The position numbers and the translations under genes are program-made. The notes beneath the pieces are model-generated. The model did not search any database. It worked only from the letters and a program-made list of their open reading frames with translations, and had not been told where the DNA came from. Positions 27,361 through 64,000 of a stretch of 64,000 nt of DNA are shown here, in pieces; position 1 is the first letter of the stretch, and each line of letters starts with the position of its first letter. The DNA is taken from IMG/VR virus record IMGVR_UViG_3300042397_001844, positions 8,887-72,886 of that record, one strand, 5' to 3'. Source of the stretch: a virus.

Positions 27361-27392
27361 CAAATATACGAAAATTATATGAGATTAACAAA
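27361..27392 (-). promoter_or_regulatory. Bacteroidota-type promoter heading the glycan operon
   Basis: TTTG-N20-TATATTTG on the minus strand. Confidence 0.75.
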
Positions 27393-34713: not shown

Positions 34714-35654
34714 TATATAATATTTAAAATTTGAATTAATGTAGCTGCTGCTGGAATTTCTTTATCAATTGCTACTGCTGATTTGTTTACTCCATCGCCT
34801 AATAGTAAGATTACATTTGCCGTATTTTCTCCTGCATACTCATCTACCTTATCATATAACATTGTATATAAATCGGTAAAGTCAGTAACTTTAGAATCAA
34901 TAAGAGCCTGTCTTACTTTCATATATTTGTTTCTCTTATCATCCGAAGATTTTAAGATATCAATAATTTTATTTCTATAATCATTCTCTAATAGATTTTG
35001 TACATCCACTTTCAACTTACCTTTGTTGGAGTTCAATTGACAAGTATTAATAATCTTACGAATATCAGGATACGATGCGTCAATGATTGGAACTAAATCC
35101 TTAACTTCAAATTCAATCTCCTCATTCTTTAAGATTTTACTAATTTGCATAGCAACATCTTTTTTAGTTGGAGGTACGATTTGAAATGATTGACATCTAC
35201 TTTGAATCGGGTCAATTACTTTCTCAACATAGTTACAAGTTAATATGAAACGGCAATGTGCTGAAAATGTTTCCATTAAGTTTCTTAAGATAGCTTGTGC
35301 GTTGTGAGTCATATAATCAAACTCATCCAATATAATAATCTTAAATGGTTTGAATCCCATTGAAGATGCAAAGTTAGTTACTTTGTTTCTTACGGTATCC
35401 ACATTGTTCTCCGAAGATGCATTGATAATCATATAATCACATTCAATTGATTTTATAATTAACTTTGCTAATGTAGTTTTACCAGTACCGGCTTTTCCGT
35501 ACAAAAGTAAATGTGGAATTTCGCCTGTTTCTAAGTAACCTTCTACTTTTGATTTTAGATGTTCATTACCTACATAATCAACAAGCTTTGTTGGGCGATA
35601 CTTCTCTACCCACAAATTATTATTTACTTTTTCTTCCGATTGTTCTATAAACAT
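34713..35654 (-). CDS. Clamp loader AAA+ subunit (RFC small subunit / T4 gp44-like)
   Basis: LWVEKYRP, GKAGTGKTT, ILDEFD, SRC. Confidence 0.93.
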   Translation of the reverse strand: MFIEQSEEKVNNNLWVEKYRPTKLVDYVGNEHLKSKVEGYLETGEIPHLLLYGKAGTGKTTLAKLIIKSIECDYMIINASSENNVDTVRNKVTNFASSMGFKPFKIIILDEFDYMTHNAQAILRNLMETFSAHCRFILTCNYVEKVIDPIQSRCQSFQIVPPTKKDVAMQISKILKNEEIEFEVKDLVPIIDASYPDIRKIINTCQLNSNKGKLKVDVQNLLENDYRNKIIDILKSSDDKRNKYMKVRQALIDSKVTDFTDLYTMLYDKVDEYAGENTANVILLLGDGVNKSAVAIDKEIPAAATLIQILNII

Positions 35655-37831: not shown

Positions 37832-38527
37832 TTACTTAATTTCTACTAAATAGTAATTTGAAGTGTAGTCACCATCAACGAATGCTACGTGCGATAATCC
37901 CTTAGATGAGATTTTCAATGAAGATGATTTAGAACCTTTGTTAGCCATTAAGATAGCTTTCAAATACTTTGCAGAAAATGCAATTGGTTCAATATCTTCT
38001 TTAGCAGTTGCTTCTACTGCAATTGAAATTCGGTTTGAGTTGATTGAAGAATATCCTAAGATAATTTCAGCTTTACCAGCCTTAACCGTAAATGTGAATG
38101 TATCTGAATCAGATAATACACCTTTTGATTTGATGAACTTATTTACAAAGTCATCATCTAAGCTTACTTCCGTATCAAATGAAGGTAATGCTTTTAAATC
38201 AGGTACTGCAGGAATCACCGATGGTGCTGCTAACATATATTGTACCTTTGTTTTCTTATCAGAAAACTTCAATGCTCCAGTAACTTCTTCTACTGCAATT
38301 GTGTCATCCAATACACTCAATAATCCTTTTAATTGAGATGTAGTGTAAATACCAAACTCACCGCTTGGAAATTCACCACCTACTACTGTAACATCACCTA
38401 ATAAGGTTTTGTCATCTGAAATCATTCTTACCGATAAGTTCTTGTCATCGGATTTTACCATAACGGATTCAATCTCACCACCTAAGTTGTAACGATTTAC
38501 GAAACCATCAAATTTGCTTTTGTTCAT
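37832..38527 (-). CDS. Sliding clamp (T4 gp45/PCNA-like); start moved to MNKSK
   Basis: About 231 aa beta-rich protein with EFGIY motif and C-terminal SNYYLV, located between PolB and the clamp loader. Confidence 0.8.
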   Translation of the reverse strand: MNKSKFDGFVNRYNLGGEIESVMVKSDDKNLSVRMISDDKTLLGDVTVVGGEFPSGEFGIYTTSQLKGLLSVLDDTIAVEEVTGALKFSDKKTKVQYMLAAPSVIPAVPDLKALPSFDTEVSLDDDFVNKFIKSKGVLSDSDTFTFTVKAGKAEIILGYSSINSNRISIAVEATAKEDIEPIAFSAKYLKAILMANKGSKSSSLKISSKGLSHVAFVDGDYTSNYYLVEIK

Positions 38528-38563
38528 AATTGAAATTTTAAATTTATGTTTTAATTTGTTATA

Positions 38564-38595
38564 CAAATATACGAAAAATACCTGAAACTACCAAA
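38564..38595 (-). promoter_or_regulatory. Bacteroidota-type promoter
   Basis: TTTG-N20-TATATTTG. Confidence 0.75.
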
Positions 38596-42249: not shown

Positions 42250-43725
42250 TTAATTTAAAAGTGATTTGTACTCATCACCACTCATATTCAACTTTTTAAG
42301 ATTATGAGATTTGCTAGTTACTACAAGATTATCATATTCAGTAACACCACCTTTTTTCTTTCCCCAACTTCTAGGAATATAATGGTCACCAACCAACTTC
42401 TTATTATCCAAAGGTTGTCCATCGTAGAAATCAATTCTACCTTGCTCTTCCCATTTTCTGATAATTTGGTCTCTAGTAAAATCACGATTATCAATTTCAA
42501 TTACCCCAAAAGAATCCATATTTTCTTTTAATTCCTTATCCAATATATAAGTGATTGTACCAATTGCTTTTGGATTTTTACCACCAAATAGTTTATTGAA
42601 TGGCTCCATTTGCTCATCATCAGTACCAAACATTAATTCATCAGCATACAACTTACCACCAGTCTTTTTATCGGTATTACTCCATTTATCATATACTTCA
42701 AAAAACTTATTTACATAGGTTTCTATAATAAGCTTTCCGTATTTGTTTTTTAACTCATAACCATATAAAATTAACATTTGAGAAAACATTGGTACAAGTT
42801 TATATTTTCTATCAGATGCAACAGATGTAATGATATCATAAGAAAATTGAATTAGTGGTTCTAAAACCGATTCTTTATAATCTTCAAATTGTTCTTCGGT
42901 AGATAAGATACCATTGGTGGCCTGAGCCTTTGTAATCCAATCGGTGTGTTTTCCTTGTGTAAGTCCATTACGATAACCATTATGTTGTAACATAATCATT
43001 TCGGAAACAAACTCATCTACTTCCATACGGCCGTTGATTACGAACCCTTCGGAGAAATTAGATAATTTCCATTTTTTCTTCTTTCCACTATCAATTAATG
43101 TTCTATCAAATAGTTTATGCTTATTTTCAAATCTTGATATATTACGAATATATTCAGATAATCTACCACGAATAGCGTTTCTCTTTTCTTGTGGTTTCAT
43201 TTCATTTGAATTATTCAAAACATTAATGAATAAATCAGCCGTTTGAGAATCTGATAAGTTTTCGTACCACTTACAGCTAATTCTATAAGAAAGTATTGTT
43301 TGATATAAATTTGGTTCGTTTTGTCTAATCCAATCTATATTCTTTTCGCGCAAATCAATACCATTGATTATAAAAGAGTCATGTTTTGGTAAACAAAACT
43401 CACCATTTATAAAATCCAAAATAGATGTTATTCTTTGCTGCCCGTCAATAAGTTCAAAGATAAAAGATTTTCCTTTCTTAACAACTCTAATATGAATTTC
43501 AGGAATCTTTTTATACGAATTGAGAATAACAGTTAGCATTATACCTTGTTTAAAGGTAAGAGATGCTACTTTTTCTCTTTGATACTCCCTAGCCCCAGTT
43601 TCAATTTTTGGAGTTTTAGAGTCTGTTAAATACGAAATACTAACATCTCCATCGTAAGATGTTGGTTTGTTTGTTTGGCCAAAGCTTTCTTCGGCGATTT
43701 CACAATAAATGAAATTTTCAGTCAT
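42250..43725 (-). CDS. DUF262 (ParB-like) plus HNH protein, GmrSD-like
   Basis: YQR, IDGQQR, F..LNN; C-terminal DHYIP...GG...NL......N. Confidence 0.85.
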   Translation of the reverse strand: MTENFIYCEIAEESFGQTNKPTSYDGDVSISYLTDSKTPKIETGAREYQREKVASLTFKQGIMLTVILNSYKKIPEIHIRVVKKGKSFIFELIDGQQRITSILDFINGEFCLPKHDSFIINGIDLREKNIDWIRQNEPNLYQTILSYRISCKWYENLSDSQTADLFINVLNNSNEMKPQEKRNAIRGRLSEYIRNISRFENKHKLFDRTLIDSGKKKKWKLSNFSEGFVINGRMEVDEFVSEMIMLQHNGYRNGLTQGKHTDWITKAQATNGILSTEEQFEDYKESVLEPLIQFSYDIITSVASDRKYKLVPMFSQMLILYGYELKNKYGKLIIETYVNKFFEVYDKWSNTDKKTGGKLYADELMFGTDDEQMEPFNKLFGGKNPKAIGTITYILDKELKENMDSFGVIEIDNRDFTRDQIIRKWEEQGRIDFYDGQPLDNKKLVGDHYIPRSWGKKKGGVTEYDNLVVTSKSHNLKKLNMSGDEYKSLLN

Positions 43726-43894: not shown

Positions 43895-44695
43895 TTACCA
43901 AAAATTTTCAGTACCTTCCGGTACTTCGTATGTAGTTAGATGATGTACCACTTCTGTGTTGTATGAAGCGGTATCTTTTGGATACGGCCTGATTTCGTGC
44001 TTTAATCGTTTCATCAAATCCTTCTTTTCTTTTTTATCTTGCGCAAGTATTTGAACATATCTATGTTTTGGTGGTTCTTCCCTTCTCCAAAACTCTTTAT
44101 ATCCTTGCTTACCAATTTCCATTTGTAAGTGTGCTAAGTTACCACTACCCCACATTGAAAATACAGTTCTACTATGAATCCATTGATACGGGTCTTTGTG
44201 TAATGATATACCCCAATTTGGCATCAATGCAATATCCGTAGATAATCCTTGATAAATCCAATTGGTAGCTTGGTATATTCCTCCCAAGTGAGCTTGTCCG
44301 TTATCAGCGTATGAAAGTAATACCTTAATATTCTTATCATGCTCTTTTAACCATTTGAAAGATTGTCCTAATGCAAATGATTCAATATTAGAACCATAAC
44401 CATCATCACAATATAAACGTGTCAATTCTAAAATGTTATCTTTGGTCAATCCTTCACAAATAGAAGTGGATGCTTTTGCTCCAACAGGAAACCCATAGAT
44501 TAAACAACCTATAAGTTTATCACCATCAAAGGTATTAGCATCTTCTGATTTGTAATATATTCCAATTGCATATCTACAAGCTGTCCAAGCGTGAGTATAG
44601 TGCTTCTTAACAATAATATCTTTAGCGATACTCTTTGCTATTGGAGCTACATATACTTTGGATGTATCACAATAATTTTTACCTTCTACCTTCAT
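43895..44695 (-). CDS. Mom-family DNA modification protein, paralogue 1
   Basis: HY, LELTRL, N.ES, SYAD..Q.HLGGIYQATNWIYQG, KHRY. Confidence 0.85.
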   Translation of the reverse strand: MKVEGKNYCDTSKVYVAPIAKSIAKDIIVKKHYTHAWTACRYAIGIYYKSEDANTFDGDKLIGCLIYGFPVGAKASTSICEGLTKDNILELTRLYCDDGYGSNIESFALGQSFKWLKEHDKNIKVLLSYADNGQAHLGGIYQATNWIYQGLSTDIALMPNWGISLHKDPYQWIHSRTVFSMWGSGNLAHLQMEIGKQGYKEFWRREEPPKHRYVQILAQDKKEKKDLMKRLKHEIRPYPKDTASYNTEVVHHLTTYEVPEGTENFW

Positions 44696-44940: not shown

Positions 44941-44972
44941 CAAATATACGAAATTAATCTGAAACTACCAAA
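44941..44972 (-). promoter_or_regulatory. Bacteroidota-type promoter, nearly leaderless transcript
   Basis: TTTG-N20-TATATTTG ending 7 nt before the ATG. Confidence 0.7.
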
Positions 44973-45727
44973 TCTATCGGCTCCATTTTATGAACTTCAT
45001 CGATAATATCCAACTCTACCTTTGGATATGGGAATACCTCATGTTTAAGCGATTTTAAGAGGGCTTTACGTTCCTTTTTATCTTTGGTTAGAATATACAC
45101 ATAGCGATGCTTACGGGGTTCTCTTTTAATCCAGAATGGGCTTGTAACCATTGTCTGAATTATCTTTGGGTCATTCGTTCCGTACTTCACATAGGATGTC
45201 CGAGAATGATGCCATTCATCATCTTCACTCCATTTGAAACTCCAACTATCTGACCATCTGATTTTGTTACCTTGATATATCCAATTAGTAGCTTGATATA
45301 CCGTTCCTAAGTGCCCAGCGTTTGGGTCTGAATAAGATATTAGGGCTTTGATACGAGGTACATTAGTTCTTAACCATTCAAAAGATTGTCCAACGAACCA
45401 ACTCTCAATGTTACTACCATATCCATCGAATACGAATAGTCGTGTTAATTCTAATACACCATCTCTAGGAAGTAATTCGGAAATTGATGCGCCGGCATTT
45501 CTACCAACCGGGTCACCATAACAGGCAACTCCAACTAATTGTTCATTCACTCCACTAAAGAATGAATGTTCATCATCGGATATATAAAATAATCCAATGG
45601 CATAGGATACCTTTGTCCATATTCCACTATAATGGTTATTGACAATGATATCCTTTGCTATGTTCTTATTAATCTCTCTAATTGAAAATTTAGAGATATC
45701 GCAATATTGTTTACCTTCTACTTTCAT
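44954..45727 (-). CDS. Mom-family DNA modification protein, paralogue 2
   Basis: HYSG, LELTRL, SNIES, SYSDPNAGHLGTVYQATNWIYQG, KHRY. Confidence 0.85.
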   Translation of the reverse strand: MKVEGKQYCDISKFSIREINKNIAKDIIVNNHYSGIWTKVSYAIGLFYISDDEHSFFSGVNEQLVGVACYGDPVGRNAGASISELLPRDGVLELTRLFVFDGYGSNIESWFVGQSFEWLRTNVPRIKALISYSDPNAGHLGTVYQATNWIYQGNKIRWSDSWSFKWSEDDEWHHSRTSYVKYGTNDPKIIQTMVTSPFWIKREPRKHRYVYILTKDKKERKALLKSLKHEVFPYPKVELDIIDEVHKMEPIDLVVSD

Positions 45728-49392: not shown

Positions 49393-50787
49393 TTAACCCA
49401 ATCCAGATACCAGTGCCGGCTTTGCACCAGGCATTGTATCTAAATATTTTTTGTGTAACATTTGTTTTTCCATTTCAGCACCACTAGCACTTTCTTTTGA
49501 TGCTATGATACCATCGGATGAAGATGCTGCATATACTTCTATCGTTCCAGTATTAGTATCCATTTTAGAAGGGAAGGTCAAACCATCCGAACCAAAACGA
49601 TTCTTCATAATGTGTACTCTAGCCGTATTGTTTATCTTATCTTTTGCCTTTCTACTTAAACTCATAATAAAGTCAGCGTTCATTACTTTAGCGTAACTAT
49701 CTGCTATCTTATCTGCTTCAATAACCTCACTATCTATTGCTGAACGATTTGTTTGTGATGCTGTCCAAATTGGTATTTGTAACTCACCACTCATTCCTCT
49801 CAAATCGATATATACACCACCTTGCTCAGCGTATGTACTATCAGTTTTATTTGAGTGTGATAATAACAAGTCGGCGTAATCCACAATAATTAAATCGGGC
49901 TTATTACCAGCTGCTATCATCTTCTCAATGTGAAGTTGAATTGTTTTTGATGATGCTCCTTTAGGTGGATAGTATTTAACTTTAAGTTTACCTGGCAATC
50001 TTTTAAGTTTACCATATACTTCATCTTTCTTTTCTTTTAAATCAACAGATGGAATATGAGTAAACACAGTATCGTATCTTAATCCTACATAATGTTGTGA
50101 AAGTTCTAATGTATAATGTACTACGGTCTTACCAGCTCTTACAGCTGCTGCTCCTAAACACGCCAACATCCAACTCTTACCAACACCAGAAGGTGCTACT
50201 ACTACTCCCAATTCACCCGGTCCTAAACCACCACCCATTAAATCATCAACACAATCCCATCCCGTTGCCACAGTCAACCTTCCAGTCTCACTAAATCTTT
50301 CCTCAAAATCTAAAAGGTAATCCATACCTAAATCTGATTCAACTCCAACCTTCATTGCCTTATCAACTAAGTCTTTGATTCTATCGTAGTTGCCTGATTT
50401 AAGTAAATCTACTGATTGTAGAATTACGTTCTTCATATTCTGATTGATACAAAATGATGTGAATTCGTTTTTCACATATTCAAAATCATCTTGTCCAATT
50501 TGTGTGTAGACCGTTTTAAGTTGTTCTACTACTGATTTCTTTAGCGATGGATTATCTAGCTTTGATACTTGCCCTTTGAATACATCCAATGTAGGTTCTT
50601 TCTTATACTCATCGTAATAATCTTTAATCTCTTGTACTATCCATTTGTTAGCATCGGATTCGAAAAACTTCTTATCAATGATTTCGCACAATGTGTCCAT
50701 CATTCTAACATCGGTAAGTAAAGCAGATATTACTTTAGCTTGAAACGATTGCCCATATTTAGAGAGTGTATCTACTTGCTCTGCCAT
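49393..50787 (-). CDS. Replicative DnaB-like helicase (T4 gp41-like)
   Basis: APSGVGKS, TLE, IVDYADLL, TASQTNR, KNRFG. Confidence 0.93.
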   Translation of the reverse strand: MAEQVDTLSKYGQSFQAKVISALLTDVRMMDTLCEIIDKKFFESDANKWIVQEIKDYYDEYKKEPTLDVFKGQVSKLDNPSLKKSVVEQLKTVYTQIGQDDFEYVKNEFTSFCINQNMKNVILQSVDLLKSGNYDRIKDLVDKAMKVGVESDLGMDYLLDFEERFSETGRLTVATGWDCVDDLMGGGLGPGELGVVVAPSGVGKSWMLACLGAAAVRAGKTVVHYTLELSQHYVGLRYDTVFTHIPSVDLKEKKDEVYGKLKRLPGKLKVKYYPPKGASSKTIQLHIEKMIAAGNKPDLIIVDYADLLLSHSNKTDSTYAEQGGVYIDLRGMSGELQIPIWTASQTNRSAIDSEVIEADKIADSYAKVMNADFIMSLSRKAKDKINNTARVHIMKNRFGSDGLTFPSKMDTNTGTIEVYAASSSDGIIASKESASGAEMEKQMLHKKYLDTMPGAKPALVSGLG

Positions 50788-51831
50788 CTATTTTACTATT
50801 ATATTTGTATAAGTTGATTTCAACCAATCGTTTATATCTTTCCAGTTTTGTAGTATCTTATACTTCATTGCTGCCTTAATAAAATCAAACTTATCAAACT
50901 TTTTATTAGGTTCGTTAAAACGGTCTAATATTTTAAGAGTTTGGTTTGTATTGATATGTGCTTCTTCTAATTGCATCAGATGCCTATTTCTCAATACCTC
51001 ATTTCTTTGAGAAAGGATATCAGCGTATATTTTAGCATCATCTTTTTTAGATTCACATATACCAAAGAATTCATCAAAGGTAATTAATCTATCTTCCTCT
51101 AATTCAGGAAATCTTTTCAGTACAGTCTTTAAACCACATCCTTTAACGCCAGGAATATTATCTGAATTATCACCATCCAATGTTCTGAATAGTAAAAGGT
51201 TTTGTGGGTACATTCCCCATTCTGCTTTTACCATCTCTCTATCATAAAGTTTCTTTTTAGTTGGTGAATAAACTTTCGTCTTATCATCTACTAATTGTAA
51301 GAAATCTTTATCAGTTGATACAATAATACATTCTTCATCTTCACCTAATATTTGTCTAGCTATGTTAGCTATTACATCATCAGCTTCGATTCCATCATAT
51401 ATCATTGTTGTAATTGGAAGTGAATCTAACAAATCAACTAACCAAACGAATTGGCGTTTCATTGAAAGTTGTTCTTCTTCCTGTGACATCATTTCAGGAT
51501 ATTGTCTATTAACTCTAAAACGATTTTTACCTCTATCAGCTTTGTATCCTTCAAACACTTCCTTTCTACCTTTAGAACCACCCTTACCATCAAAGATAAG
51601 AACTACTCTAGTCGGATTGAATTGGCGTATTTGAGAACCAATTGAATTTAATGAACCAATAACTCCACCCGTATGGTCACCATCCTCATTCATTGTAGGG
51701 TTGGTAGTCCAACTACGGATGAAGGTATTAAGTCCATCAATGACAAGAACTCTACTATTACGCACTCTTAAGTGTGATGTCTCATGTTCTGATTCTACTT
51801 CGTTAAGAAGCTTTTTGTATAAGTCTTTCAT
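50788..51831 (-). CDS. 5'-3' exonuclease / flap endonuclease (T4 RNase H-like)
   Basis: IDGLN, YKADR, EADD, STDKD, GDNSDNIPGV. Confidence 0.93.
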   Translation of the reverse strand: MKDLYKKLLNEVESEHETSHLRVRNSRVLVIDGLNTFIRSWTTNPTMNEDGDHTGGVIGSLNSIGSQIRQFNPTRVVLIFDGKGGSKGRKEVFEGYKADRGKNRFRVNRQYPEMMSQEEEQLSMKRQFVWLVDLLDSLPITTMIYDGIEADDVIANIARQILGEDEECIIVSTDKDFLQLVDDKTKVYSPTKKKLYDREMVKAEWGMYPQNLLLFRTLDGDNSDNIPGVKGCGLKTVLKRFPELEEDRLITFDEFFGICESKKDDAKIYADILSQRNEVLRNRHLMQLEEAHINTNQTLKILDRFNEPNKKFDKFDFIKAAMKYKILQNWKDINDWLKSTYTNIIVK

Positions 51832-51851: not shown

Positions 51852-52973
51852 TTAATCCCCAATTACTTCTGAATCTACAACTAAGTTATCAGAGTCTAGT
51901 GAATCTTTTTTGTATTGTAAAATTGTAGATTCGCAAATTCTTTTATAAATCTGCTCTTTAACTTCCGTATTGTTTTCCAATGTAGAAGGAAAATCTTTCG
52001 CCTGAAACTTAATGATTTCACCAGTATCAATATCAGTATATTCATACCATGCACCACTTTGTTTTACGATTCCATTTTCTTTCATCATTCCCAACCATGC
52101 TCCGTAGTTATCAATACCTCTATCAAAGAAGATATCGAAATCTGCTGAACGTAATGGTGGTCCCATACGATTCTTTACAACCTGGCATCTTACTTTGATA
52201 CCAACAATTCTATCGTTACCATTTTCTTTTGCCTTAATCGTTCCCATACTCTTTAATCTTAAACGAACCGATGCATGGAAAGCAATTGCTTTACCACCAG
52301 AAGTTGTCCAAGGGTCAGAGAATGGCATTGCGTTCATCTTCTGTCTTAATTGGTTTGTGAAAACTAGAGTGATTTTCTGTCTACCAATAAGATTTGTGAT
52401 TTTACGCATTGCTTTGGAAATGATAATTGCTTTATCCGTAGCGTAACCATCCTTACCATAATCAGCTTCCATCTCCTTTTCAGTTGATGCTGCTGCTACT
52501 GAATCCACAACGATTGTTACATACTTATCTTTCGATGAAACTCTCACCTTTTCGATAATTGTTTCCGTATATTCAAAACATTGTTCAACAGTCTCAGCTG
52601 CTACATAAAGTAATTTGGTTGTATCTACTCCAATGGCTTCTAAGAATTCTCTACTTACGGCGTTCTCCGTGTCAATCAATACAGCGATACCACCTAACTT
52701 TTGTGTTTCGGCAAGTAAGTGAGCTGATACTAATGATTTACCACTTTGTTCTAATCCCGTAATTTCGGTAATTCTACCAACAGGCAAACCTCCATAAGGT
52801 CTATTAGAGATTGCCACATCCAACATTGATGCTCCGGTTGATACCCAACCTTCTACGTTTGTAGGGGAGTCATTGTTGTCCAAAAAGAATGCTACCTTTT
52901 GGTCTTTTGCTTGTTTGTTTAGGGAGTCCGCTAGCACTTCTGCTAAGTCTACCTCTTTCGTTGCTTTCGCCAT
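51852..52973 (-). CDS. recA: RecA/UvsX recombinase
   Basis: STG, GRITEI.GLEQSGKS, DTE, DSVAA, NQLR, GGKA. Confidence 0.92.
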   Translation of the reverse strand: MAKATKEVDLAEVLADSLNKQAKDQKVAFFLDNNDSPTNVEGWVSTGASMLDVAISNRPYGGLPVGRITEITGLEQSGKSLVSAHLLAETQKLGGIAVLIDTENAVSREFLEAIGVDTTKLLYVAAETVEQCFEYTETIIEKVRVSSKDKYVTIVVDSVAAASTEKEMEADYGKDGYATDKAIIISKAMRKITNLIGRQKITLVFTNQLRQKMNAMPFSDPWTTSGGKAIAFHASVRLRLKSMGTIKAKENGNDRIVGIKVRCQVVKNRMGPPLRSADFDIFFDRGIDNYGAWLGMMKENGIVKQSGAWYEYTDIDTGEIIKFQAKDFPSTLENNTEVKEQIYKRICESTILQYKKDSLDSDNLVVDSEVIGD

Positions 52974-52988
52974 GTTGTTACTTATTTA

Positions 52989-53810
52989 CTATGAATTGAA
53001 AAGGTCATCAAATGCTGATGCTACATCATCGATTTTCTTCGGTGATTCTTTTGGTGCTGATTTTGCGTCATCAACATCAAATGGTGCTTCATCATTTTTT
53101 GCGGTAGATGCTAACGTCTCTGCTGCTGCAGTAGATGTATCTTCATCACCATTAGCGGATGGGTTTAACCAACCTTCTAATACATTTTTCAATTCCGAAT
53201 AAGTCAACTCTTGGTAAAGGTCTGTGATTTCGGTTTGTCCATTGATAAACTTATCAGTTTCTTCTTTAGTTGCTGCTAAAGGAGTTTCCTTTGGTTTAAC
53301 ACGGATTGTTGTTACAGGGTAAGAAGTACCACTGTCTTCAGCTGATACTACTTCAACAGTAATATCTCTACCTTCATTTGGGTCAGTAATATCACCATAA
53401 TCAGGATCTGCGATGTAACCAAGAATTTCTTGATATACAGTTTTTCCAAAGCCCCAGAATCTTACACCTTCACCTTCTTCACCTCTTACCAATACTGGTA
53501 CGAATGTTCTAAGTTTCGGCTCCATTTTCTTGGCAGCTTTCCAATCTTCTTTATCACCCATTCTTTTCAACTTATCAGCGAACTCAACGATAGGGTCAGG
53601 TCTGCCAAAAGAAGATGGAGATAGATAAGATTTGTTGTTAATGTTGTAGTGAAAGAATAATTCAATAAAAGGATTCTCTTTGTTGAATTTGTAAGGGACT
53701 AAACGAATAGTGTGTTTGCCCGGAGCTGGTTTCCAAAGTTCTACTTTCTTTGAAGTTGTGCTTTGTAGTTTGTTCAGTCTACCTCTGATTGCGTCTAAGT
53801 TAATAGCCAT
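52989..53810 (-). CDS. Single-stranded DNA-binding protein (T4 gp32-like); start moved to MAINL
   Basis: WKP, IRLVP, DITDPNEGRD, acidic tail AFDDLFNS; first gene of the replication block. Confidence 0.8.
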   Translation of the reverse strand: MAINLDAIRGRLNKLQSTTSKKVELWKPAPGKHTIRLVPYKFNKENPFIELFFHYNINNKSYLSPSSFGRPDPIVEFADKLKRMGDKEDWKAAKKMEPKLRTFVPVLVRGEEGEGVRFWGFGKTVYQEILGYIADPDYGDITDPNEGRDITVEVVSAEDSGTSYPVTTIRVKPKETPLAATKEETDKFINGQTEITDLYQELTYSELKNVLEGWLNPSANGDEDTSTAAAETLASTAKNDEAPFDVDDAKSAPKESPKKIDDVASAFDDLFNS

Positions 53811-53896
53811 TTTTTTACGTTTTAAGAGTTTATGTTTTATGGTTTTATTTAGGTGAGTGTCCTTCACCCTCTATGTATATAAATATTAAGAGATTA

Positions 53897-54018
53897 CAAA
53901 TATACGACAAATTATCGGACTTTCCAAATCTTTTTTGAAGTATATTTTTAACCCATTTAAGCATGTATATATGTTTGAGATTTACTCAAAGATACGAAAA
54001 ATATACGAAACTACCAAA
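53897..54018 (-). promoter_or_regulatory. Two tandem Bacteroidota-type promoters (53897-53928 and 53987-54018)
   Basis: TTTG-N20-TATATTTG and TTTG-N20-TATCTTTG. Confidence 0.75.
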
Positions 54019-56791: not shown

Positions 56792-57223
56792 TTATTTAGA
56801 TTGTCCTTCCGTAACTTCTTTATTTCCTTCTCCGAAATCAATTACTTCAAAAATTCTTGTCTGAATTTTCTTTGTACCTTCGGCGTTTGTTAATATGATT
56901 GAATTCTTAAACTTTTGCCAATTGATGACAAAAGATGTATCTAACACCCCACCATTCTCCTCTTTAACTAATTCGTTAAGAGCATTAATAGTGTAAAGTG
57001 AATTAGATTCTTTCTTTCTATGTATTAGTATTGTATTTTCCAATGGAGTCTCCGGTTGGAAAGCAGTATCTATATTATAAGTCACAAACAATTCCTCTAA
57101 ATTGGACTTGTTTTGTAGTATATAGATATAGTTGTAGACTATATGGTAAGTCTCTCTTATCTGTTGTAGAGTATTTTGTAACTCCTCTTTTGTTGTAAAT
57201 GTACAAAGTAACTGTGTCTTCAT
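56792..57223 (-). CDS. Hypothetical phage protein
   Basis: 143 aa, LLCTF...HRKKESNSLYTINALN. Confidence 0.6.
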   Translation of the reverse strand: MKTQLLCTFTTKEELQNTLQQIRETYHIVYNYIYILQNKSNLEELFVTYNIDTAFQPETPLENTILIHRKKESNSLYTINALNELVKEENGGVLDTSFVINWQKFKNSIILTNAEGTKKIQTRIFEVIDFGEGNKEVTEGQSK

Positions 57224-57287: not shown

Positions 57288-60200
57288 TTATTTTTTCTTA
57301 TTTGCTTTTGCCGCTCTATTATTTACTCTTTTACCAATAGATTGTCTAGCTTTCTCATTTGATTCGGATGTATCTCCATTTTTACGATTTGCTTCAGAAA
57401 TAGCTAATGCAAAATCATCGGAACAAGATATTTCAAAACCAACAGTTCCTTCATATCCTTTACCTTTTTGTCTTGCACCTACTACACCAATCGGAATATC
57501 TTTACCATCTTTGGTTTTTGCACCATATACTAATATAGTTTCACCATTTGGTAATCTTTTTAATTTCATACCTTTTTGTAATTCATCATAGTTTGCTACA
57601 CCAAATACAGTTTGTAAAGTTTTTTGAGTTACTTTCATACCATCTATACACATAAACTCCTCACCCTGCATACAAGTCTTCATTGGGAATGCATCTGCCA
57701 ATTTCTGCATTAAACCTCCCATTAATTGAGGACTTTCTGGTAATACTTCCATTAAAGCATTTCCGGCTTCTACTGCTAAATTATAATGTTTACTCAAAGC
57801 TTTTTCAGCTTTAGTATCACCAGCAGCTATTGCTACTTTAGATGCCAACACTGCTACTTTACATACTCTATCATCGGTTGTATCCTCCCCAGCTGCACTT
57901 AATTTTTGTCTTATACATGTAGTTATATCTTTAGTACCACTTGCTTTACAATCCTTAACTGCTTTGTAAGCAAATTTAGCAAAATCTTTATCACCACCAT
58001 CTATATTTTTTGCATTATCAATCACATTATTTGCGTTTCTAATATTAGTGTTTGCTGTTTTAATTAAACTTTCTGCTGATTTTGTTTGAGCTCCTCCAAA
58101 ATTTCTAACTTTAGAAACTGCTTGTTGTACATGCGAAGGTGCTGCATCAAATGCTTTTGTTCTAATATCACCTGCTAATTGTTTCAATGCAGCTATTGCT
58201 TTTGTACCTTTTAATCCAGTAATTCTTTCAGCTGCTGCTAAGGCGGCCGCTCTATCTTCTGGATTTTTGTTTGATGCTCCTGCTTTTGTTACTATTGCTT
58301 CATATCCTTTTACTCTTTTTCTCTCCTTATCATCTAAGAAGTTTAATACAAAATTATTAACTTCATTAATTGAACCATTAAAGAAGAAAATGTTTTCATC
58401 TTTCTTTAAAGAATTCTTTTGTGCTCTAGCAGGTCCGTTTGGTTTACCATTTTTATCTAAAGGTTGTACTCTTAACATTACATCGGTTGAGAATCCTTTG
58501 TTTTTATAATCTAATCCTAATGATTCAACATCACTCCTAATATCCCAAGCAGCTCCTTCAAATCTCCACTGACCTTTACCATATTTTTCATCCATTGCCG
58601 AATCAAATGCTTCTGCGTGTGTTAGTGAGGCCTCTACCCAATCTTTAGTTGCAATTGAACTTTGTTTTCCACCTCCAAATTCTTCTGCTGATTTTGCAAT
58701 CTCAGCGCTCATTATATCAGCAAGTTGTCTTCTTTGTTGTGGGTCTCTCATTGACATAAATGCCATTGCCATTACTTCACCAAATTGAGATTGAATTTGC
58801 CCAGCACCACCTTGCTTTATTAATTCAGTTACAGGTGGTTTTTTACCTTTAACTTGTGTATTAATACATCTTTCTAAAAACTTAATATATTTTTCAGGAA
58901 ATCCTGATTCTTTTAATTTTGTTCTTGTATCTTTATCTACTTTATATGGCTCTTTTCTAACCAAAGAAGAATGCTTTCTTCCACCATTTGAAGTTGAATA
59001 GTAATCATCATCGGAATATCCATCAGCCATATCTTGGTTTGAATACTCTGGTGCCAATTCTCTCATATCATCAGGAGTTGCTTCTCCCGTATTTACATAT
59101 TTTTCTAATATAGAATCAAGTTCTTCGGGTTTTACTTCTAAAATAGTCTTACCTTCATCTCCGTTCTTTTTGTGTGGATTATTTGTTTCAACTCTTTCTT
59201 TTTTAGCTGGAACTGATGCTTTTTTTACATCCGGCTTCATATCAGGAGTTTTTCTAAAATCACCAGCTCCTAATTTTTTAGTTGGAGCTTGTGGTGTTGT
59301 AGTACCTCCTGCATTTTTAATATCTCTCTTATTAGGAACATCGTGTTGTGCTGATTTTGGTGCTATTACAGTATAAACATTACCAGTCTTTTTACTTTTT
59401 ACCCAATACTTACCATCATCTGATTTTGGATATGTTGCTTCATCTATAAAGCCATAAATCATTTCTAACATTAACTCATTTGCTAAATCTATACTTTCTT
59501 CTTTCATTTTTGGTTCTATTGGTGTTTCAACGTTATCAGTTTCACCATTTTCTTTTTTCTTATTATATGAATCAACCATATCCTCCATCATTTCATCACT
59601 AATTTCCATTTCTTCAAGTCCTTTTGCAATCAATTCAGTAAACTTTAATATGTTTGCATCCATTTCAGCTTCACCATCCGCATCAGCAAATACAGCTGCT
59701 TTACCAACTCCCTTTAGAATTGTCTCACCAATAATGTGAGGTATAAACTCCATTGCTACGTGCTTTCCAAATGCAGCAACACCATGTGATAATCCACCAA
59801 ATGCAGCTCCGAATACGGCGGTAGTTACTACTTTAAATGCAACTGCTTTAACGGCTTTTTGTTCATGCTCACTCAAAGGTTTACCACTAAAAAAGTTTTG
59901 AACTCCTTTACCAGCTGCTTTAAATTCCTCAACCTCATGCTTAGCTCCTTTCTTAATTGCCTTCAAAGCCCCAGCTGCTTTATCTTTTAAAGCCTGTCCT
60001 AAACTTCTACGTTCTTTTGAACCAGGCGCACCTTCGTTTTTCTCAAAGAATGCTTTTTCCTTTTCAGTCCATTTATCTATTTTTTGTTTTATCTTATCAG
60101 TAATTTTTGGTACTGATGTTACGGCTGATGGTGTCTCTTTATTTGCATCTGCTTTCTTAGGTGCGATTCCCATATCTTCTGCAAACTTATTTGCCATTGG

Positions 60201-61478
60201 TATTGCATCTTTAATATCCTGGTCTAATACCGTTGTTTTCATTGGTATTTGTTTGTCTGGATTTTGTGCATTATATGCTACAATTGCTGCCCATCTATGG
60301 TGGCCATCAATTACATATCCATCTCTACTCACATATATTGGTGCGGTAATTTTTGGATGATTAGGGTCTTTCTCTAAAGCCCCCATCATACCAACTACTT
60401 TTGCTCCAACTAAATCTTTTTGTGTTGCTTTTAATTTATCAGCAGGTACTTCAGTTTGTAAGGTTTTAATTCCCTTCTCTTTTAACATTTCTTTGAATAC
60501 AGGTTCAGTATCAACCTCACCACTAGCATCAGCTTCCATTCCAGCTGCTCTACTACCCGGCGATGCATTTCCTTTAAATTGTGGCATCTCATCTCTTGGT
60601 ATTCCTAAGTTATCATCACAATATAAGTTTGTACCTGGCACAGTTACATCACATAAATTAACATTTGGTGCAGGTTCTCCTTTAGCTTTAGCATCAGCTA
60701 CTTGCTGTGCTACTTTATTAATATCTGTATTGAATTGTTCTAACTCCTTTGGGTCTATTGCATCTGGAATATCACTACCACCACTAAATGTATCAGTATC
60801 GGCTTGTGGCATTTCCTTTGCTACATCTTTAATATCAATTGGATTAAATTTAGCATCTAATGGATTTGGTTCTTCTTTTGATTTTTCAGAATCAGCTTCT
60901 TTATCCTTTTGTGCTATCTTATCATTTGCCGCTTTTTCTCTATCCATTCTAGCTCCCATTGCAGGGTCTGCTTTTGGGTCAAACATTGATGCCGCTTGCT
61001 TTTGTTTTTCCTTTTCAGCATCAGCTCCACCTACCGCACCACCTTCTCCACCTTCAGGTTTTTTTGGTTGTCCTTCACCACCCAATTCCTGATTTAATTT
61101 TTCTCTTTCTGGAGAACCTTCCGGTGGTAACATTTTTTCTGCTGCCGTTCTAGCAGGACTTCCTTCCGGTTGTCTTAATAGATTTCCAACAATACCTTCT
61201 TTATCTTCACCACCTGTACTCTTATAAGTTACTTTTTTATTTAAGATAGGATTAGTAAAGTTTTTATCAGCTTCTGCAATATCTTGAGGAGTCTTTCCCT
61301 TTTCGGTTAAAAGATTTTCAATTAGCATATCTTCTATTTGAGATATTCCCATTTCTTTTAATACAATACGCAACTCTTTTAAGTGAGTTGGATTTTTCAC
61401 ATCAGGCATACCATCTTTTACTCTGTATGCCCAATCTGATACGATTTCCTTTATTAATTCAGTTATATTCATATTCAT
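57288..61478 (-). CDS. Large multidomain protein: ParB/Srx-like domain, hydrophobic segment, possible C-terminal PD-(D/E)XK domain
   Basis: PIYVSRDGYVIDGHHRWAA; VVTTAVFGAAFGGL; GEV...STDV...NSLKK. Confidence 0.6.
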   Translation of the reverse strand: MNMNITELIKEIVSDWAYRVKDGMPDVKNPTHLKELRIVLKEMGISQIEDMLIENLLTEKGKTPQDIAEADKNFTNPILNKKVTYKSTGGEDKEGIVGNLLRQPEGSPARTAAEKMLPPEGSPEREKLNQELGGEGQPKKPEGGEGGAVGGADAEKEKQKQAASMFDPKADPAMGARMDREKAANDKIAQKDKEADSEKSKEEPNPLDAKFNPIDIKDVAKEMPQADTDTFSGGSDIPDAIDPKELEQFNTDINKVAQQVADAKAKGEPAPNVNLCDVTVPGTNLYCDDNLGIPRDEMPQFKGNASPGSRAAGMEADASGEVDTEPVFKEMLKEKGIKTLQTEVPADKLKATQKDLVGAKVVGMMGALEKDPNHPKITAPIYVSRDGYVIDGHHRWAAIVAYNAQNPDKQIPMKTTVLDQDIKDAIPMANKFAEDMGIAPKKADANKETPSAVTSVPKITDKIKQKIDKWTEKEKAFFEKNEGAPGSKERRSLGQALKDKAAGALKAIKKGAKHEVEEFKAAGKGVQNFFSGKPLSEHEQKAVKAVAFKVVTTAVFGAAFGGLSHGVAAFGKHVAMEFIPHIIGETILKGVGKAAVFADADGEAEMDANILKFTELIAKGLEEMEISDEMMEDMVDSYNKKKENGETDNVETPIEPKMKEESIDLANELMLEMIYGFIDEATYPKSDDGKYWVKSKKTGNVYTVIAPKSAQHDVPNKRDIKNAGGTTTPQAPTKKLGAGDFRKTPDMKPDVKKASVPAKKERVETNNPHKKNGDEGKTILEVKPEELDSILEKYVNTGEATPDDMRELAPEYSNQDMADGYSDDDYYSTSNGGRKHSSLVRKEPYKVDKDTRTKLKESGFPEKYIKFLERCINTQVKGKKPPVTELIKQGGAGQIQSQFGEVMAMAFMSMRDPQQRRQLADIMSAEIAKSAEEFGGGKQSSIATKDWVEASLTHAEAFDSAMDEKYGKGQWRFEGAAWDIRSDVESLGLDYKNKGFSTDVMLRVQPLDKNGKPNGPARAQKNSLKKDENIFFFNGSINEVNNFVLNFLDDKERKRVKGYEAIVTKAGASNKNPEDRAAALAAAERITGLKGTKAIAALKQLAGDIRTKAFDAAPSHVQQAVSKVRNFGGAQTKSAESLIKTANTNIRNANNVIDNAKNIDGGDKDFAKFAYKAVKDCKASGTKDITTCIRQKLSAAGEDTTDDRVCKVAVLASKVAIAAGDTKAEKALSKHYNLAVEAGNALMEVLPESPQLMGGLMQKLADAFPMKTCMQGEEFMCIDGMKVTQKTLQTVFGVANYDELQKGMKLKRLPNGETILVYGAKTKDGKDIPIGVVGARQKGKGYEGTVGFEISCSDDFALAISEANRKNGDTSESNEKARQSIGKRVNNRAAKANKKK

Positions 61479-62080
61479 TAAAATTTATGGTCGTTTGCTT
61501 CACATACCATTTCCAACTCATCCCAATTAAATTTAGGTTTTTCATTTAGAAATACATAACACTTCCATTTCTTTTGTTTTTCAAAATAGATATGTTTTTG
61601 TAAGTGGGATGGTATTGCTGCTCCAGTTGCTACTCTTTTAGCAGGAGTATCAAAGAATGTTTTTATTAATACGGTAATATTTTCGGTATCATCCCATTTA
61701 CGGATTTGTTCTTCTAACATTCTCCATTCACCTCTATTAAGATATTTATCCTGCATTATGCAATTTAGATAAGAAAATGTTTGTTTTAGATTTACCATAT
61801 TATCAGAAAATGTTGCAGCTGGTGCACCATGTCCTTTGTCATATATGTTTGCTTTATAATCATCACCATCTGATGTTTTGATATTTGCTTCTTTATAAAA
61901 ATCCATAGCTCCTCTATTCACATTTGTAGGACGGTTAGTAGAACGATACTTAATTACTAAGGGTTGTTCTAACGATTGTGAGTATAAAACCTCAAACACA
62001 TTATTTTTAATTCTTACATTTTGTCCAAAGGAAACCAAAGAAAGGATTAAAAAAATAAAAAGGATAACGATTTTCTTCAT
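61478..62080 (-). CDS. DNA/RNA non-specific endonuclease (His-Me finger) with signal peptide
   Basis: MKKIVILFIFLILSLVSFG signal peptide; YDKGH.APAA, TF...N...Q...LNRGEW..LE. Confidence 0.88.
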   Translation of the reverse strand: MKKIVILFIFLILSLVSFGQNVRIKNNVFEVLYSQSLEQPLVIKYRSTNRPTNVNRGAMDFYKEANIKTSDGDDYKANIYDKGHGAPAATFSDNMVNLKQTFSYLNCIMQDKYLNRGEWRMLEEQIRKWDDTENITVLIKTFFDTPAKRVATGAAIPSHLQKHIYFEKQKKWKCYVFLNEKPKFNWDELEMVCEANDHKF

Positions 62081-62119: not shown

Positions 62120-63406
62120 TTATAGTTTTCCGTAATCCAAACCCCAACTAGCCTTAACAGGGAAACCACTTCCTTCGATGATTTCCTTCAATCCCTTAAT
62201 CAATCCCTTATCAATATCAGTCGGAACATCAAAAAGAAACGAGTCATATGTGTATAAACAAAAGTTAATACCACTACCTCTTATATAATCCAATATCTTT
62301 CTCATAACCTCAATGTTCATCTCAGTCTCAACGGCTTGTAATAAGTAGTTGAATACCTTTTGTGCATTTGGTTGTTCTATCCAGCTCAATGGGATTTCTC
62401 TATGTGGTGTTTGTAAGTATCCCTTCTTTTGTACATCAATCCATAAGGTATCAATGTAATCAGCTACCGCATTAAAATATGGGATTTGACGGAAATCATC
62501 ATCAATACCACCATAAAGTAATTGGAACGTAATACCCTTTGATTCATCCACACTACATCCATATTGTTCGGCCAACCACTCATGCACACTGGTTTTGGGA
62601 AGCTCAAAGTTTACCAACTTACCAATCAATCGAGGGTGATATGCGTTATAATCCATTTGTAGGAATATACCATCGGAAACGAAACATTCTCTACTACCAT
62701 CGGTTTTATTTAAGGCGGCATAGTTCACACCACCATGTCTATTGGATGGTCTACCTGTCACCGTAAATGGATTGTATTCGGTGTACACTAAGTTATCGGA
62801 GGATACTTGCTTTTGAGCTTGTGGCCATCTATCAGTAAATTTTTTCCCATCGACACGGATTCCAAATTGTTCGATATCTGAAAGGGTAGGTATAAACACT
62901 TCGTTGTACCACTTAAGAGTAGTAGTGTATGGTTCATTATGGAAGTATTTACGAAATTGCGGTTCTATCACCTCTACAATCTTCATTAGAGGAAGGGATT
63001 GGATTAAGTCATCTCTATACCCTTTGTGAGTCAACGTTGAAAGGAGAGGATTTAAAGGGGCTTCATAATCAATTACCTTTGCTTCCTTTCTAAAGTATGC
63101 AGAATCTACATCGTATAGATTTACTGAAACATTAAGAGTATGTAATATCTTCTTTTTTTGGAATACCCACTTTTGTCCGTTGGTATTTATGATAGATTCT
63201 ATTTGCGCATTACTTAACGATAGAGCGTCTGTATGTTTATGAGGTAGAATGTATAAGCCATCTGAACATCGTACAACTACGAGCGAAATAGAAGTGTTTA
63301 ATGGATGCTTACTATTATCTACCCACAATGGATACCAAATAGATGCTTCCGTTTCCAGCTTTTGTTTTAATTCATTAATTTCCTCAATAGACTCAATAAT
63401 CTTCAT
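62120..63406 (-). CDS. Short, divergent family A DNA polymerase
   Basis: T.TGRPS, motif A DYNAYHPR, motif B KGITFQLLYG, NYLLQ, motif C YDSFLFD. Confidence 0.8.
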   Translation of the reverse strand: MKIIESIEEINELKQKLETEASIWYPLWVDNSKHPLNTSISLVVVRCSDGLYILPHKHTDALSLSNAQIESIINTNGQKWVFQKKKILHTLNVSVNLYDVDSAYFRKEAKVIDYEAPLNPLLSTLTHKGYRDDLIQSLPLMKIVEVIEPQFRKYFHNEPYTTTLKWYNEVFIPTLSDIEQFGIRVDGKKFTDRWPQAQKQVSSDNLVYTEYNPFTVTGRPSNRHGGVNYAALNKTDGSRECFVSDGIFLQMDYNAYHPRLIGKLVNFELPKTSVHEWLAEQYGCSVDESKGITFQLLYGGIDDDFRQIPYFNAVADYIDTLWIDVQKKGYLQTPHREIPLSWIEQPNAQKVFNYLLQAVETEMNIEVMRKILDYIRGSGINFCLYTYDSFLFDVPTDIDKGLIKGLKEIIEGSGFPVKASWGLDYGKL

Positions 63407-63411
63407 AGATA

Positions 63412-63443
63412 CAAAGATACGAAAATTATATTAAAATACCAAA
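63412..63443 (-). promoter_or_regulatory. Bacteroidota-type promoter, probably leaderless transcript for the PolA gene
   Basis: TTTG-N20-TATCTTTG ending 5 nt before the ATG. Confidence 0.7.
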
Positions 63444-63847: not shown

Positions 63848-63881
63848 AAAAAAATCCCAAACTATTAAAGTTCGGGATTTT
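63848..63881 (-). terminator. Intrinsic terminator directly after the tmRNA
   Basis: AAAATCCCGAACT-TTAAT-AGTTTGGGATTTT plus T-tract on the minus strand. Confidence 0.75.
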
Positions 63882-64000
63882 GGTGGAGATGAGGGGAATC
63901 GAACCCCTGTCTTACAAAGTAATCATAATACCAGCATATCACACGTTTAGGTAAAGTTTAATCTTATTCACTTTCCAAAATAATTGGGGCCGTATGGTTA
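63881..64000 (-). ncRNA. ssrA: tmRNA, 3' part (continues beyond the window)
   Basis: Minus strand ends ...CTAAACGTGTGA...GACAGGGGTTCGATTCCCCTCATCTCCACCA: T-arm, Ala-type acceptor CTCCACCA, no anticodon arm upstream. Confidence 0.85.

Follow-up and report, generated by a model that had tools for sequence, protein, structure and literature searches.

The 64,000-nucleotide stretch of viral DNA analysed here (the window) comprises positions 8,887 to 72,886 of IMG/VR record IMGVR_UViG_3300042397_001844. It makes up the final 64 kb of a record of 72.9 kb, to which CheckV assigns a completeness of 38%. The window encodes a compact family A-type DNA polymerase, which we assign by homology and gene order to the divPolA1 family. 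Two properties of the family stand out. Firstly, the polymerase pocket carries four family-wide replacements, among them a histidine at the position of the glutamate steric gate in DNA polymerase I (Pol I) from Escherichia coli. Secondly, the gene is strictly linked to a small gene of no known family, here called g2. We tentatively favour the idea that divPolA1 would be an active, distributive, non-proofreading, primer-dependent accessory DNA polymerase, carrying out short-patch synthesis with a flap endonuclease (FEN) and/or on the intermediates of the UvsX recombinase.

Membership of the divPolA1 family

The name divPolA1 was introduced by Yutin et al. in 'DNA polymerase swapping in Caudoviricetes bacteriophages' (Virol J 2024; PMC11348598; preprint 10.1101/2024.04.26.591309). 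As the text of that study has it, the family comprises 14 phages of 155-190 kb, the type member immuto and its relatives, each of which has in addition a regular polymerase, from family A, B or C. Replication genes lie in a conserved arrangement 3' of divPolA1. The protein is described as retaining the palm residues, with a truncated thumb and an inactivated exonuclease; in a structure-guided alignment the three catalytic exonuclease aspartates are replaced. The conclusion drawn there is that divPolA1 is probably still active as a polymerase and takes part in replication (Yutin et al., PMC11348598).

The window gene shares these properties: the homology, a second, regular polymerase (PolB), the downstream replication genes, and a palm that is kept while thumb and exonuclease are lost. 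Its product matches gene 1 of Flavobacterium phage vB_FspM_immuto, annotated as 'DNA polymerase family A' in its own record, with a tblastn E of 4e-36 and 25.5% identity over 92% of the query, and the motif residues are all common to the two proteins (alignment A2). Because of this homology and the same downstream genes, the window gene is, as judged from sequence, a member of the published family, and it shows nothing that sets it apart from the other members.

The relationship to family A is easily overlooked. Since the curated models give no match (0 Pfam families at E <= 1, PF00476 (DNA_pol_A) included, and 0 NCBIfam families at E <= 0.1), it is visible solely through phrog_17, through a family profile compared with PDB sequences and through the fold. 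The phrog_17 model ('DNA polymerase') matches residues 188-420 with E 5.8e-13. A single-sequence phmmer search of the PDB gave chance matches only (E 1.8). The homologue profile A1, built from 93 sequences, matches Klenow-fragment chains with E 2.9e-12 and, less strongly, the enzymes of Taq, Bst, Aquifex and the apicoplast. The translation contains MDYNAYHPRLIG, VDESKGITFQLLYGG and LYTYDSFLFD.

The family is large. In a collection clustered at 90% identity, 1493 proteins among 5115 candidates are relatives at E <= 0.001, the best 120 being 424-439 residues long; at 50% identity there are 1001 representative clusters, 479 of them with E <= 1e-30. At least 576 IMG/VR stretches encode relatives. 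Among 185,579 prokaryotes, taken as one genome per species, only seven stretches do so, and every one is on a contig of a metagenome-assembled genome. The genomes concerned are labelled Flavobacteriales, Saprospirales, Microbacteriaceae, Ignavibacteria, Nitrosopelagicus and others, from which nothing firm follows about hosts. On this evidence the divPolA1 family is viral. Fused or longer forms of 750-2140 residues were not found, in a search that is itself weak evidence.

The active site

The initial annotation of the window, made from the letters alone, had described a protein of 428 residues with both catalytic aspartates, a histidine at the position of Glu710 of Pol I, loss of the Arg754 equivalent and a Tyr-Asp-Ser motif C in place of His-Asp-Glu. 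All of these observations stand when the A1 profile is aligned with the Klenow fragment. Pol I numbers are given as the Klenow chain index plus 323, with residues counted along the profile alignment, a convention that reproduces the numbers in the annotation. Asp252 corresponds to Asp705, His257 to Glu710, Arg259 to Arg712, Arg219 to Arg668 and His275 to His734. In motif B, Val286 takes the position of Arg754, Lys290 that of Lys758, Phe294 that of Phe762 and Tyr298 that of Tyr766. Further on, Asn353 and Gln357 correspond to Asn845 and Gln849, and Tyr387-Asp388-Ser389 to His881-Asp882-Glu883.

Columns were counted in 257 sequences, namely the window protein and 256 homologues of 380-500 residues drawn from 270 stored sequences, 14 shorter fragments having been dropped. 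Both catalytic aspartates, Asp252 and Asp388, are present in all 257, as are Lys290, Arg219, Glu179, Gln357, Glu360 and Tyr387. Tyr298 occurs in 256, Phe294 in 253 and Asn353 in 252. The gate position is histidine in 256 sequences, phenylalanine in one (P0221, with the motif DYKAFFPRI) and glutamate in none, which settles affirmatively the point raised in the annotation as to whether its DxxxYH motif is fixed among homologues. Three relatives from phage isolates or databases, of 25-32% identity, also have histidine here. The residue that follows the motif C aspartate is Ser in 231 members, Ala in 23, Gly in three and never Glu, and motif C is accordingly Tyr-Asp-Ser/Ala/Gly throughout. At the Arg754 position we find Val (113), Tyr (100), Ile (27), Leu (8) and, in only four members, Arg.

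The glutamate gate and the His-Asp-Glu motif C of family A are both absent from divPolA1. Where the Klenow fragment has Glu710, Arg754, His881 and Glu883, the family has His, Val or Tyr, Tyr, and Ser or Ala, respectively. Such uniformity across the alignment indicates that the odd residues are not due to chance. To our knowledge, and as far as our searches show, divPolA1 is the only family A lineage in which every member examined has an aromatic or imidazole side chain where the glutamate steric gate would be.

What might the histidine do? Glu710 is the steric gate of Pol I, whereas reverse transcriptases and the polymerases of families B and Y use an aromatic residue for this purpose. Because the sole member without histidine has phenylalanine, the type of gate residue used in those other families, the alignment suggests that the position still acts by bulk. 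The initial annotation had proposed altered sugar selectivity. That proposal is weakened, since the lone phenylalanine is no less compatible with a steric role that is retained than with one that is relaxed. In Pol I, Arg668, Asn845 and Gln849 read the minor groove of the primer-template duplex, and the conservation of their equivalents argues for a primer-dependent, duplex-binding enzyme.

Predicted structure

The AlphaFold2 model of divPolA1, calculated with A1 as the alignment, has a mean predicted local distance difference test score (pLDDT) of 97.1 and a predicted template-modelling (TM) score of 0.94. The top Foldseek match is the Klenow fragment (1kfd, E 4.3e-19, query TM 0.72). With an exhaustive structural aligner the Klenow structure 1d9d_A gives a Z score of 23.9 and a root-mean-square deviation (rmsd) of 3.2, with 420 of the 428 residues aligned. 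His257 occupies the equivalent of Glu710 in structure as in sequence. Other family A DNA polymerases give Z 18-23.6 over 371-418 residues, and single-subunit RNA polymerases Z 9.4-13.5 over about 250 residues. Residues 1 to approximately 180 match DEDD-type exonucleases (Z 8-11.4, the best being 7r0t_A with 11.4). On the model, divPolA1 is predicted to be a miniature of the whole Klenow fragment, with an exonuclease-fold N-domain and a polymerase domain.

The two enzymes have in common the two-domain fold, motifs A, B and C and the equivalents of Arg668, Asn845, Gln849 and His734. They differ in size, the Klenow fragment having 605 residues and a thumb tip, whereas in the 428-residue divPolA1 the thumb tip is gone and the exonuclease site is dead. 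In the profile alignment the thumb tip of Klenow, about 77 residues at approximately 559-635, is left unmatched by divPolA1, which has shortened fingers as well. Of the exonuclease acidic site just the first position is partly retained, with Asp30 in 206 of the 257 sequences; 114 sequences have Asp or Glu at position 32. The N-domain thus appears to retain the exonuclease fold but not its acidic site, the further assignment of exonuclease motifs being made by comparison with the motifs of Pol I and not from structure at the level of residues. The annotation was correct in seeing no clear exonuclease motif in this compact second polymerase. We considered the conserved N-domain residues His34, His58 and Asp99 as a new metal site and dropped the idea, as His58 and Asp99 look like inherited structural residues when set against the same Pol I motifs. 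A FEN domain is part of Pol I; in the window FEN is a separate gene, three genes from divPolA1.

The T7-like RNA polymerases share with divPolA1 a palm and fingers core of the same origin. T7 RNA polymerase has a small residue after the motif C aspartate and a gate without glutamate. Nevertheless, the structural match is far weaker than that to DNA polymerases, and divPolA1 has an exonuclease-like N-domain and, at the Gln849 position, the glutamine typical of DNA polymerases.

The partner gene g2

The product of g2 is homologous to that of immuto gene 2 (151 residues, 'hypothetical'), and homologues are 130-150 residues in length. We were struck by the regularity with which the two genes occur together. 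In a tblastn survey of 154 related loci, drawn from 83 confirmed stretches and the best 80 of 576, there are 79 loci with at least 7 kb of sequence 3' of divPolA1, and all 79 have a g2 homologue downstream on the same strand. A survey in the opposite direction started from g2 and analysed 79 of the best 80 stretches out of 588 confirmed. Where the upstream flank reaches 9 kb or more, divPolA1 lies 5' of g2, on the same strand, in 31 of 31 loci; the figures are 34 of 34 for flanks of at least 6 kb and 41 of 45 for at least 3 kb. All four loci without divPolA1 come from close relatives of the window's clade and have under 5 kb of upstream flank, the expected distance being 4-6 kb. In distant clades a gap of 5-8 nucleotides separates divPolA1 from g2, and the next open reading frame (ORF), encoding single-stranded DNA-binding protein (SSB) in comparable loci, follows about 65 nucleotides on.

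The g2 protein is more conserved than divPolA1, with 77-97% identity in the best 120 matches, and 4205 proteins are found at E <= 0.001. Alignment A4 reveals invariant residues Asn50, His68-Arg69-Lys70-Lys71, Asn74, Tyr77, Asn80, Asn83, Gly92 and Trp102, but no invariant acidic residue. No match was obtained against Pfam or PHROG, and only the protein's own cluster was returned from the protein atlas. A g2 profile found nothing significant among PDB sequences, the best hit (E 0.093) being a chance match of 35 residues. The predicted model has a pLDDT of 90.4. Foldseek gave no match to it at E <= 0.001. Residues 1-67 are weakly ferredoxin/ACT/RRM-like, with a best Z of 6.2, 64 aligned residues and an rmsd of 2.1; the structural matches listed are weak (Z up to 6.2) and none of them is an oligonucleotide-binding (OB) fold. 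A prediction of the complex of divPolA1 with g2, run without controls, returned no answer (score 0.00 against a mark of 0.32), which speaks neither for nor against a complex. The linkage indicates that divPolA1 probably works together with g2.

The replication block and its promoter-like sites

The features of the window are listed in Table 1. As the annotation had stated, PolB, the clamp and the clamp loader lie about 21 kb from divPolA1. The order divPolA1-g2-SSB-UvsX-FEN-DnaB is retained across divPolA1 identities from 28% to 96%, and the same downstream order is found in immuto and in Microcystis phage Mel-JY01. In the window, genes for ribonucleotide reductase (RNR) are also 3' of divPolA1, beside those for SSB, UvsX, FEN and DnaB. 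The flank taken was 10 kb, hence the lower counts in Table 1 for genes farther downstream. Two clade-specific insertions separate divPolA1 from g2 in the window. The first encodes an endonuclease, which is directly 3' of divPolA1 in 47 of the 79 loci and absent from distant clades, and the second, in 53 of the 79, a protein of 1396 residues. The latter has a weak ParB/SerK-like stretch near DGHHRW and varies widely in length among relatives. A lysin and a protein of 618 residues are inserted between g2 and SSB in the clade of the window.

Table 1. Features of the window, with positions in the 64,000-nucleotide stretch; x/79 gives the number of loci with the gene among those with at least 7 kb 3' of divPolA1.
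Feature	Position	Strand	Evidence and remarks
divPolA1-type compact family A polymerase	62120-63406	-	ORF, 428 residues, ATG start; residues ~1-180 predicted dead 3'-5' exonuclease-like domain, remainder predicted polymerase domain without thumb tip; motif A Asp252/His257, motif B Lys290/Phe294/Tyr298, motif C Tyr387-Asp388-Ser389
Promoter-like site TTTGGTATTTTAATATAATTTTCGTATCTTTG	63412-63443	-	Ends 5 nucleotides 5' of the divPolA1 ATG
TTTGgtAgTTTC...TTCGTATaTTTG sites	63412-63443, 53987-54018, 53897-53928, 44941-44972, 38564-38595, 27361-27392, 24034-24065	-	
Endonuclease, DNA/RNA non-specific	61478-62080	-	PF01223, E 4e-19; signal-peptide-like hydrophobic N-terminus
1396-residue protein, function unknown	57288-61478	-	phrog_2859, residues 272-453
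g2, 143 residues, no known family	56792-57223	-	Homologue of immuto gene 2
gp32-like SSB	52989-53867	-	phrog_1192; PF08804, E 8e-14; 66/79
UvsX/RecA-like recombinase	51852-52973	-	phrog_97, E 7.5e-76; 55/79
Pol I-type 5'-3' exonuclease/flap endonuclease (FEN)	50788-51831	-	PF02739, E 6.3e-34; PF01367; 42/79
DnaB-like replicative helicase	49393-50787	-	phrog_19, E 4.7e-74; PF03796; 31/79
Mom-family DNA-modification genes, two adjoining paralogues	43895-44695, 44954-45727	-	PF25680, E 1.5e-44; phrog_1384, E 1e-46 to 2e-47
491-residue protein, probable HNH nuclease	42250-43725	-	Residues 426-480, NF049971, E 2.6e-5
Regular family B DNA polymerase (PolB), 840 residues, with exonuclease domain	38601-41123	-	phrog_262, E 6.1e-181; PF00136, PF03104
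Sliding clamp (processivity factor)	37832-38566	-	phrog_223, E 7.4e-13
DruA homologue	36433-37644	-	PF14236, E 3.3e-19
Clamp-loader large subunit	34713-35654	-	phrog_168, E 1.2e-80
Clamp-loader small subunit	33996-34445	-	phrog_225, E 1.1e-16
tmRNA gene, 3' part	63881-64000	-	Rfam RF00023 positions 259-374 of 374, 41.1 bits (gathering 47), E 5.9e-15
Terminator-like hairpin	63851-63881		Follows the tmRNA gene

The spacer of 42 nucleotides 5' of the divPolA1 ATG reads TTTG-N20-TATCTTTG, a motif which we take to correspond to the host-type promoter consensus of Bacteroidota, with its -33/-7 layout. Within the window TTTG-N17-23-TANNTTTG occurs 12 times against an expectation of 5.83 +/- 2.36, and 12 was reached in one of 100 shuffles. 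Seven sites on the minus (coding) strand share a longer consensus of 32 nucleotides, TTTGgtAgTTTC...TTCGTATaTTTG; they lie 5' of divPolA1, of SSB (two sites), of the clamp (one) and of other genes. A generic sigma-70 scan of the window remained at chance level, with 13 sites found and 15.7 expected. From its sequence, the longer motif would appear to be a class of phage promoter that has the Bacteroidota layout as its basis. The suggestion in the annotation that divPolA1 is expressed from its own host-type promoter is plausible, given a Bacteroidota host.

The question of a primase

The annotation had also remarked that no primase is visible beside the helicase. This is literally true: searches for DnaG-type primases and for those of the archaeo-eukaryotic (AEP) type found none in the window. 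As an argument that divPolA1 takes the place of a primase, however, the remark fails. Immuto has an ORF of 306 residues with a zinc finger and a Toprim domain that matches phrog_47 ('DNA primase') with E 5.5e-42, and homologues of this primase are present in two further records, G002 (274 kb) and G005. When four large or complete divPolA1 genomes were searched together (a 169-kb record with terminal repeats, immuto, Mel-JY01 and the 484-kb LR756508), a phrog_47 DnaG-type primase was found in all four.

No primase match was obtained in records G001 (L086-L097), G003 and G004 or in the window's own record, nor within the 10-kb flanks of the 79 loci. A Pfam scan of the 187 coding-strand ORFs of at least 100 residues in G001 (of 200 on both strands) found no primase, and the AEP-type models PF09250 and PF01896 each matched in none of five records. 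We considered a true absence of primase from G001 (207 kb, CheckV completeness 100%) and G003 (188 kb, 97%) and rejected it, as the records are incomplete. The genes that flank the primase in G002 and G005, among them a fused SbcCD/gp46-47-like gene, have no homologue in G001 or the window, and the SbcCD/gp46-47-like gene is missing too from G003, G004 and G000. Records without a primase are therefore also without the adjoining gp46/47-like gene, which marks them as incomplete and uninformative on this point. The Pfam scan of G001 likewise gave no terminase, portal or major capsid match. The completeness that CheckV reports for this phage group looks too high. We conclude that divPolA1 is not a stand-in for a missing primase, and that the missing primase is an artefact of the incompleteness of the window's record. 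The phages may have a second route of priming besides the DnaG-type primase.

Possible functions

The accessory polymerase that we tentatively favour has its basis in an intact two-aspartate site, in minor-groove and triphosphate contacts that are kept except for Arg754, and in the fixed partner and block position. Heading the divPolA1-g2-SSB-UvsX-FEN-DnaB block under its own promoter-like site, divPolA1 would extend primers or invading 3' ends and fill gaps for FEN and ligase. The setting would be lagging-strand (Okazaki-fragment) maturation and/or recombination-dependent replication, with bulk synthesis left to the regular, swappable replicase, in the window PolB with its clamp and loader. 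A job like that of Pol I would then be split over separate genes and held constant while the bulk replicase is exchanged. The histidine, or phenylalanine in the one member, would most likely be an aromatic steric gate that packs under the sugar.

Several points weigh against this proposal. Arg754 contacts the triphosphate and Glu883 provides a carboxylate, and both matter to catalysis by Pol I; without their equivalents the activity of divPolA1 could be low or different. T7-like RNA polymerases have Ser or Ala after the catalytic aspartate of motif C, and the same feature in divPolA1, together with the lost glutamate gate, could indicate the use of ribonucleotides. T4-type replisomes need no extra gap-filling polymerase, and by that analogy the proposed role would not be required. 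The evidence that joins divPolA1 and g2 as a functional pair is gene linkage only. Our literature search found no biochemistry for any divPolA1 member. Finally, the text of Yutin et al. (PMC11348598) leans towards divPolA1 as a replication enzyme proper, its context being more conserved than that of the regular polymerases.

A bolder idea, which we hold to be unlikely, is that divPolA1 and g2 form a two-subunit enzyme whose rebuilt pocket (the His gate, no Arg754, Tyr-Asp-Ser) starts or extends chains with ribonucleotides, as a primase-polymerase or in the hand-off of RNA primers. If this were true, a very large group of aquatic phages would have the pair as the constant core of their replication module, and the swapping of family A, B and C replicases would be explained.

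In a two-subunit primase-polymerase, a rival reading to which we give rather little credence, divPolA1 would catalyse while g2 holds the single-stranded template, so that synthesis starts de novo beside DnaB. The model would be CcPol-MP of the staphylococcal cassette chromosome (SCC), one of the primases termed 'PolA-SSB' that mobile elements of Firmicutes encode (Bebel et al., eLife 2020, PMC7581432; Rice, 10.1101/2022.12.02.518924). As set out in the text of those papers, an A-family polymerase and a small adjacent protein make up a primase encoded near a helicase. CcPol resembles divPolA1 in being a trimmed A-family polymerase with a shortened thumb, an adjoining small uncharacterised protein and a helicase nearby. 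The strict linkage in the 79 and 31 loci, the close spacing of the two genes in distant clades, the invariant basic HRKK patch of g2 and the presence of SSB and DnaB in the same block would all suit such a machine. However, all of the large or complete divPolA1 genomes examined also carry a conventional primase with a zinc finger and a Toprim domain (4/4, and also G002 and G005), whereas, as far as those papers describe them, the CcPol-MP elements have no other primase; divPolA1 is found in large aquatic phages and not in Firmicutes elements. The partner MP is an OB fold, while g2 is not recognisably one, its first half being weakly ferredoxin/ACT/RRM-like. CcPol keeps Glu at the position of Glu710, and Phe at that of Phe762, and the histidine of divPolA1 is therefore no mark of that system (PMC7581432; 10.1101/2022.12.02.518924).

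Sugar selectivity that is relaxed or inverted, the idea of the initial annotation, could serve the extension of RNA primers, the insertion of ribonucleotides or a hand-off between the DnaG-type primase and the A, B or C replicase. We regard it as distinctly improbable. It would account for the absence of glutamate from the gate in all 257 sequences and for the Ser, Ala or Gly after the motif C aspartate, as in T7-like RNA polymerases; both changes would remove carboxylates near the 2' positions. Yet histidine and phenylalanine are bulky and planar, as are the aromatic gate residues found in reverse transcriptases and in families B and Y, and the equivalents of Phe762 and Tyr766 are almost always kept. 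In favour of the idea, the constancy of divPolA1 beside a regular polymerase whose family is swapped (PMC11348598) would suit a universal adaptor for primer extension.

It is very unlikely, in our estimate, that the main replicative polymerase is divPolA1 together with g2, and that the regular A, B or C enzyme is the accessory. The text of Yutin et al. (PMC11348598) offers support in that divPolA1 sits in a conserved replication block, while the regular polymerases lie in variable neighbourhoods and are swapped, and the family is extremely conserved and widespread, as its 1001 clusters testify. Against this, divPolA1 has no proofreading site and a truncated thumb, yet the genomes are of 155-270 kb, and the PolB of the window has an exonuclease domain and adjoins the clamp and both loader subunits, the standard T4-type set.

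Least probable of all is that divPolA1 transcribes the phage genome as a DNA-dependent RNA polymerase, or that it is a scaffold without catalytic activity. In favour, motif C is Tyr-Asp-Ser, the glutamate gate is lacking and T7-like RNA polymerases, which derive from the same fold, are matched with Z 9-13.5. Against this, the matches to DNA polymerases are far better, with Z 18-24 and 371-420 residues aligned, the N-domain is the exonuclease-like one typical of DNA polymerases with no promoter-binding domain, and the catalytic and duplex-contact residues tested are invariant, which speaks against a scaffold.

Relation to previous work

A full-text literature search for the term divPolA1 returned only the papers of Yutin et al. 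The words 'steric' and 'ribonucleotide' have 0 occurrences in the text of either version, figures and supplements lying outside that count. What we add to that text is the fixed histidine at the Glu710 position, the replacements of Arg754, His881 and Glu883, the strict linkage to g2 and a measure of how large the family is in metagenomes, with 1001 clusters at 50% identity compared with 14 phages. The figures and supplements of the study may already show part of these additions. A reclassification of family A polymerases in 2023 (PMC10201439) defined 19 clusters, none of which, as described in its text, resembles divPolA1.

Other features of the window and its relatives

The tmRNA gene, from its sequence, would be phage-encoded. 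The contig ends within this gene, on its 5' side, and ARAGORN found nothing in the window, probably since the gene is truncated. The two Mom-family genes have the RNR genes on one side and the PolB region on the other, and the same pair is present in G001. The protein of 491 residues next to PolB is probably an HNH nuclease; its match is to the HNH region of Cas9d and is weak, far below the cut-off. The homologue of DruA, a component of Druantia defence, is encoded between the clamp and dUTPase and occurs in G001 as well. G001 (L090:6397-7555 (-), L089:13814-15340 (-)) further carries genes for a ferredoxin-dependent bilin reductase and a heme oxygenase, a tryptophan-halogenase-like gene and a superoxide dismutase gene, as well as an extended series of genes for sugar-nucleotide enzymes and glycosyltransferases.

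Implications

The gene itself is not a discovery, the family having been described in silico in 2024. It is the replaced glutamate gate and the three further pocket changes, the obligate-looking partner and the abundance of the family that make divPolA1 worth a test at the bench. A compact Klenow-like enzyme of 428 residues with altered handling of the sugar could interest enzyme engineers. Knowledge of what divPolA1 does would clarify lagging-strand and recombination-dependent synthesis in the large phages of Bacteroidota and cyanobacteria, and might explain why their main polymerase is exchangeable.

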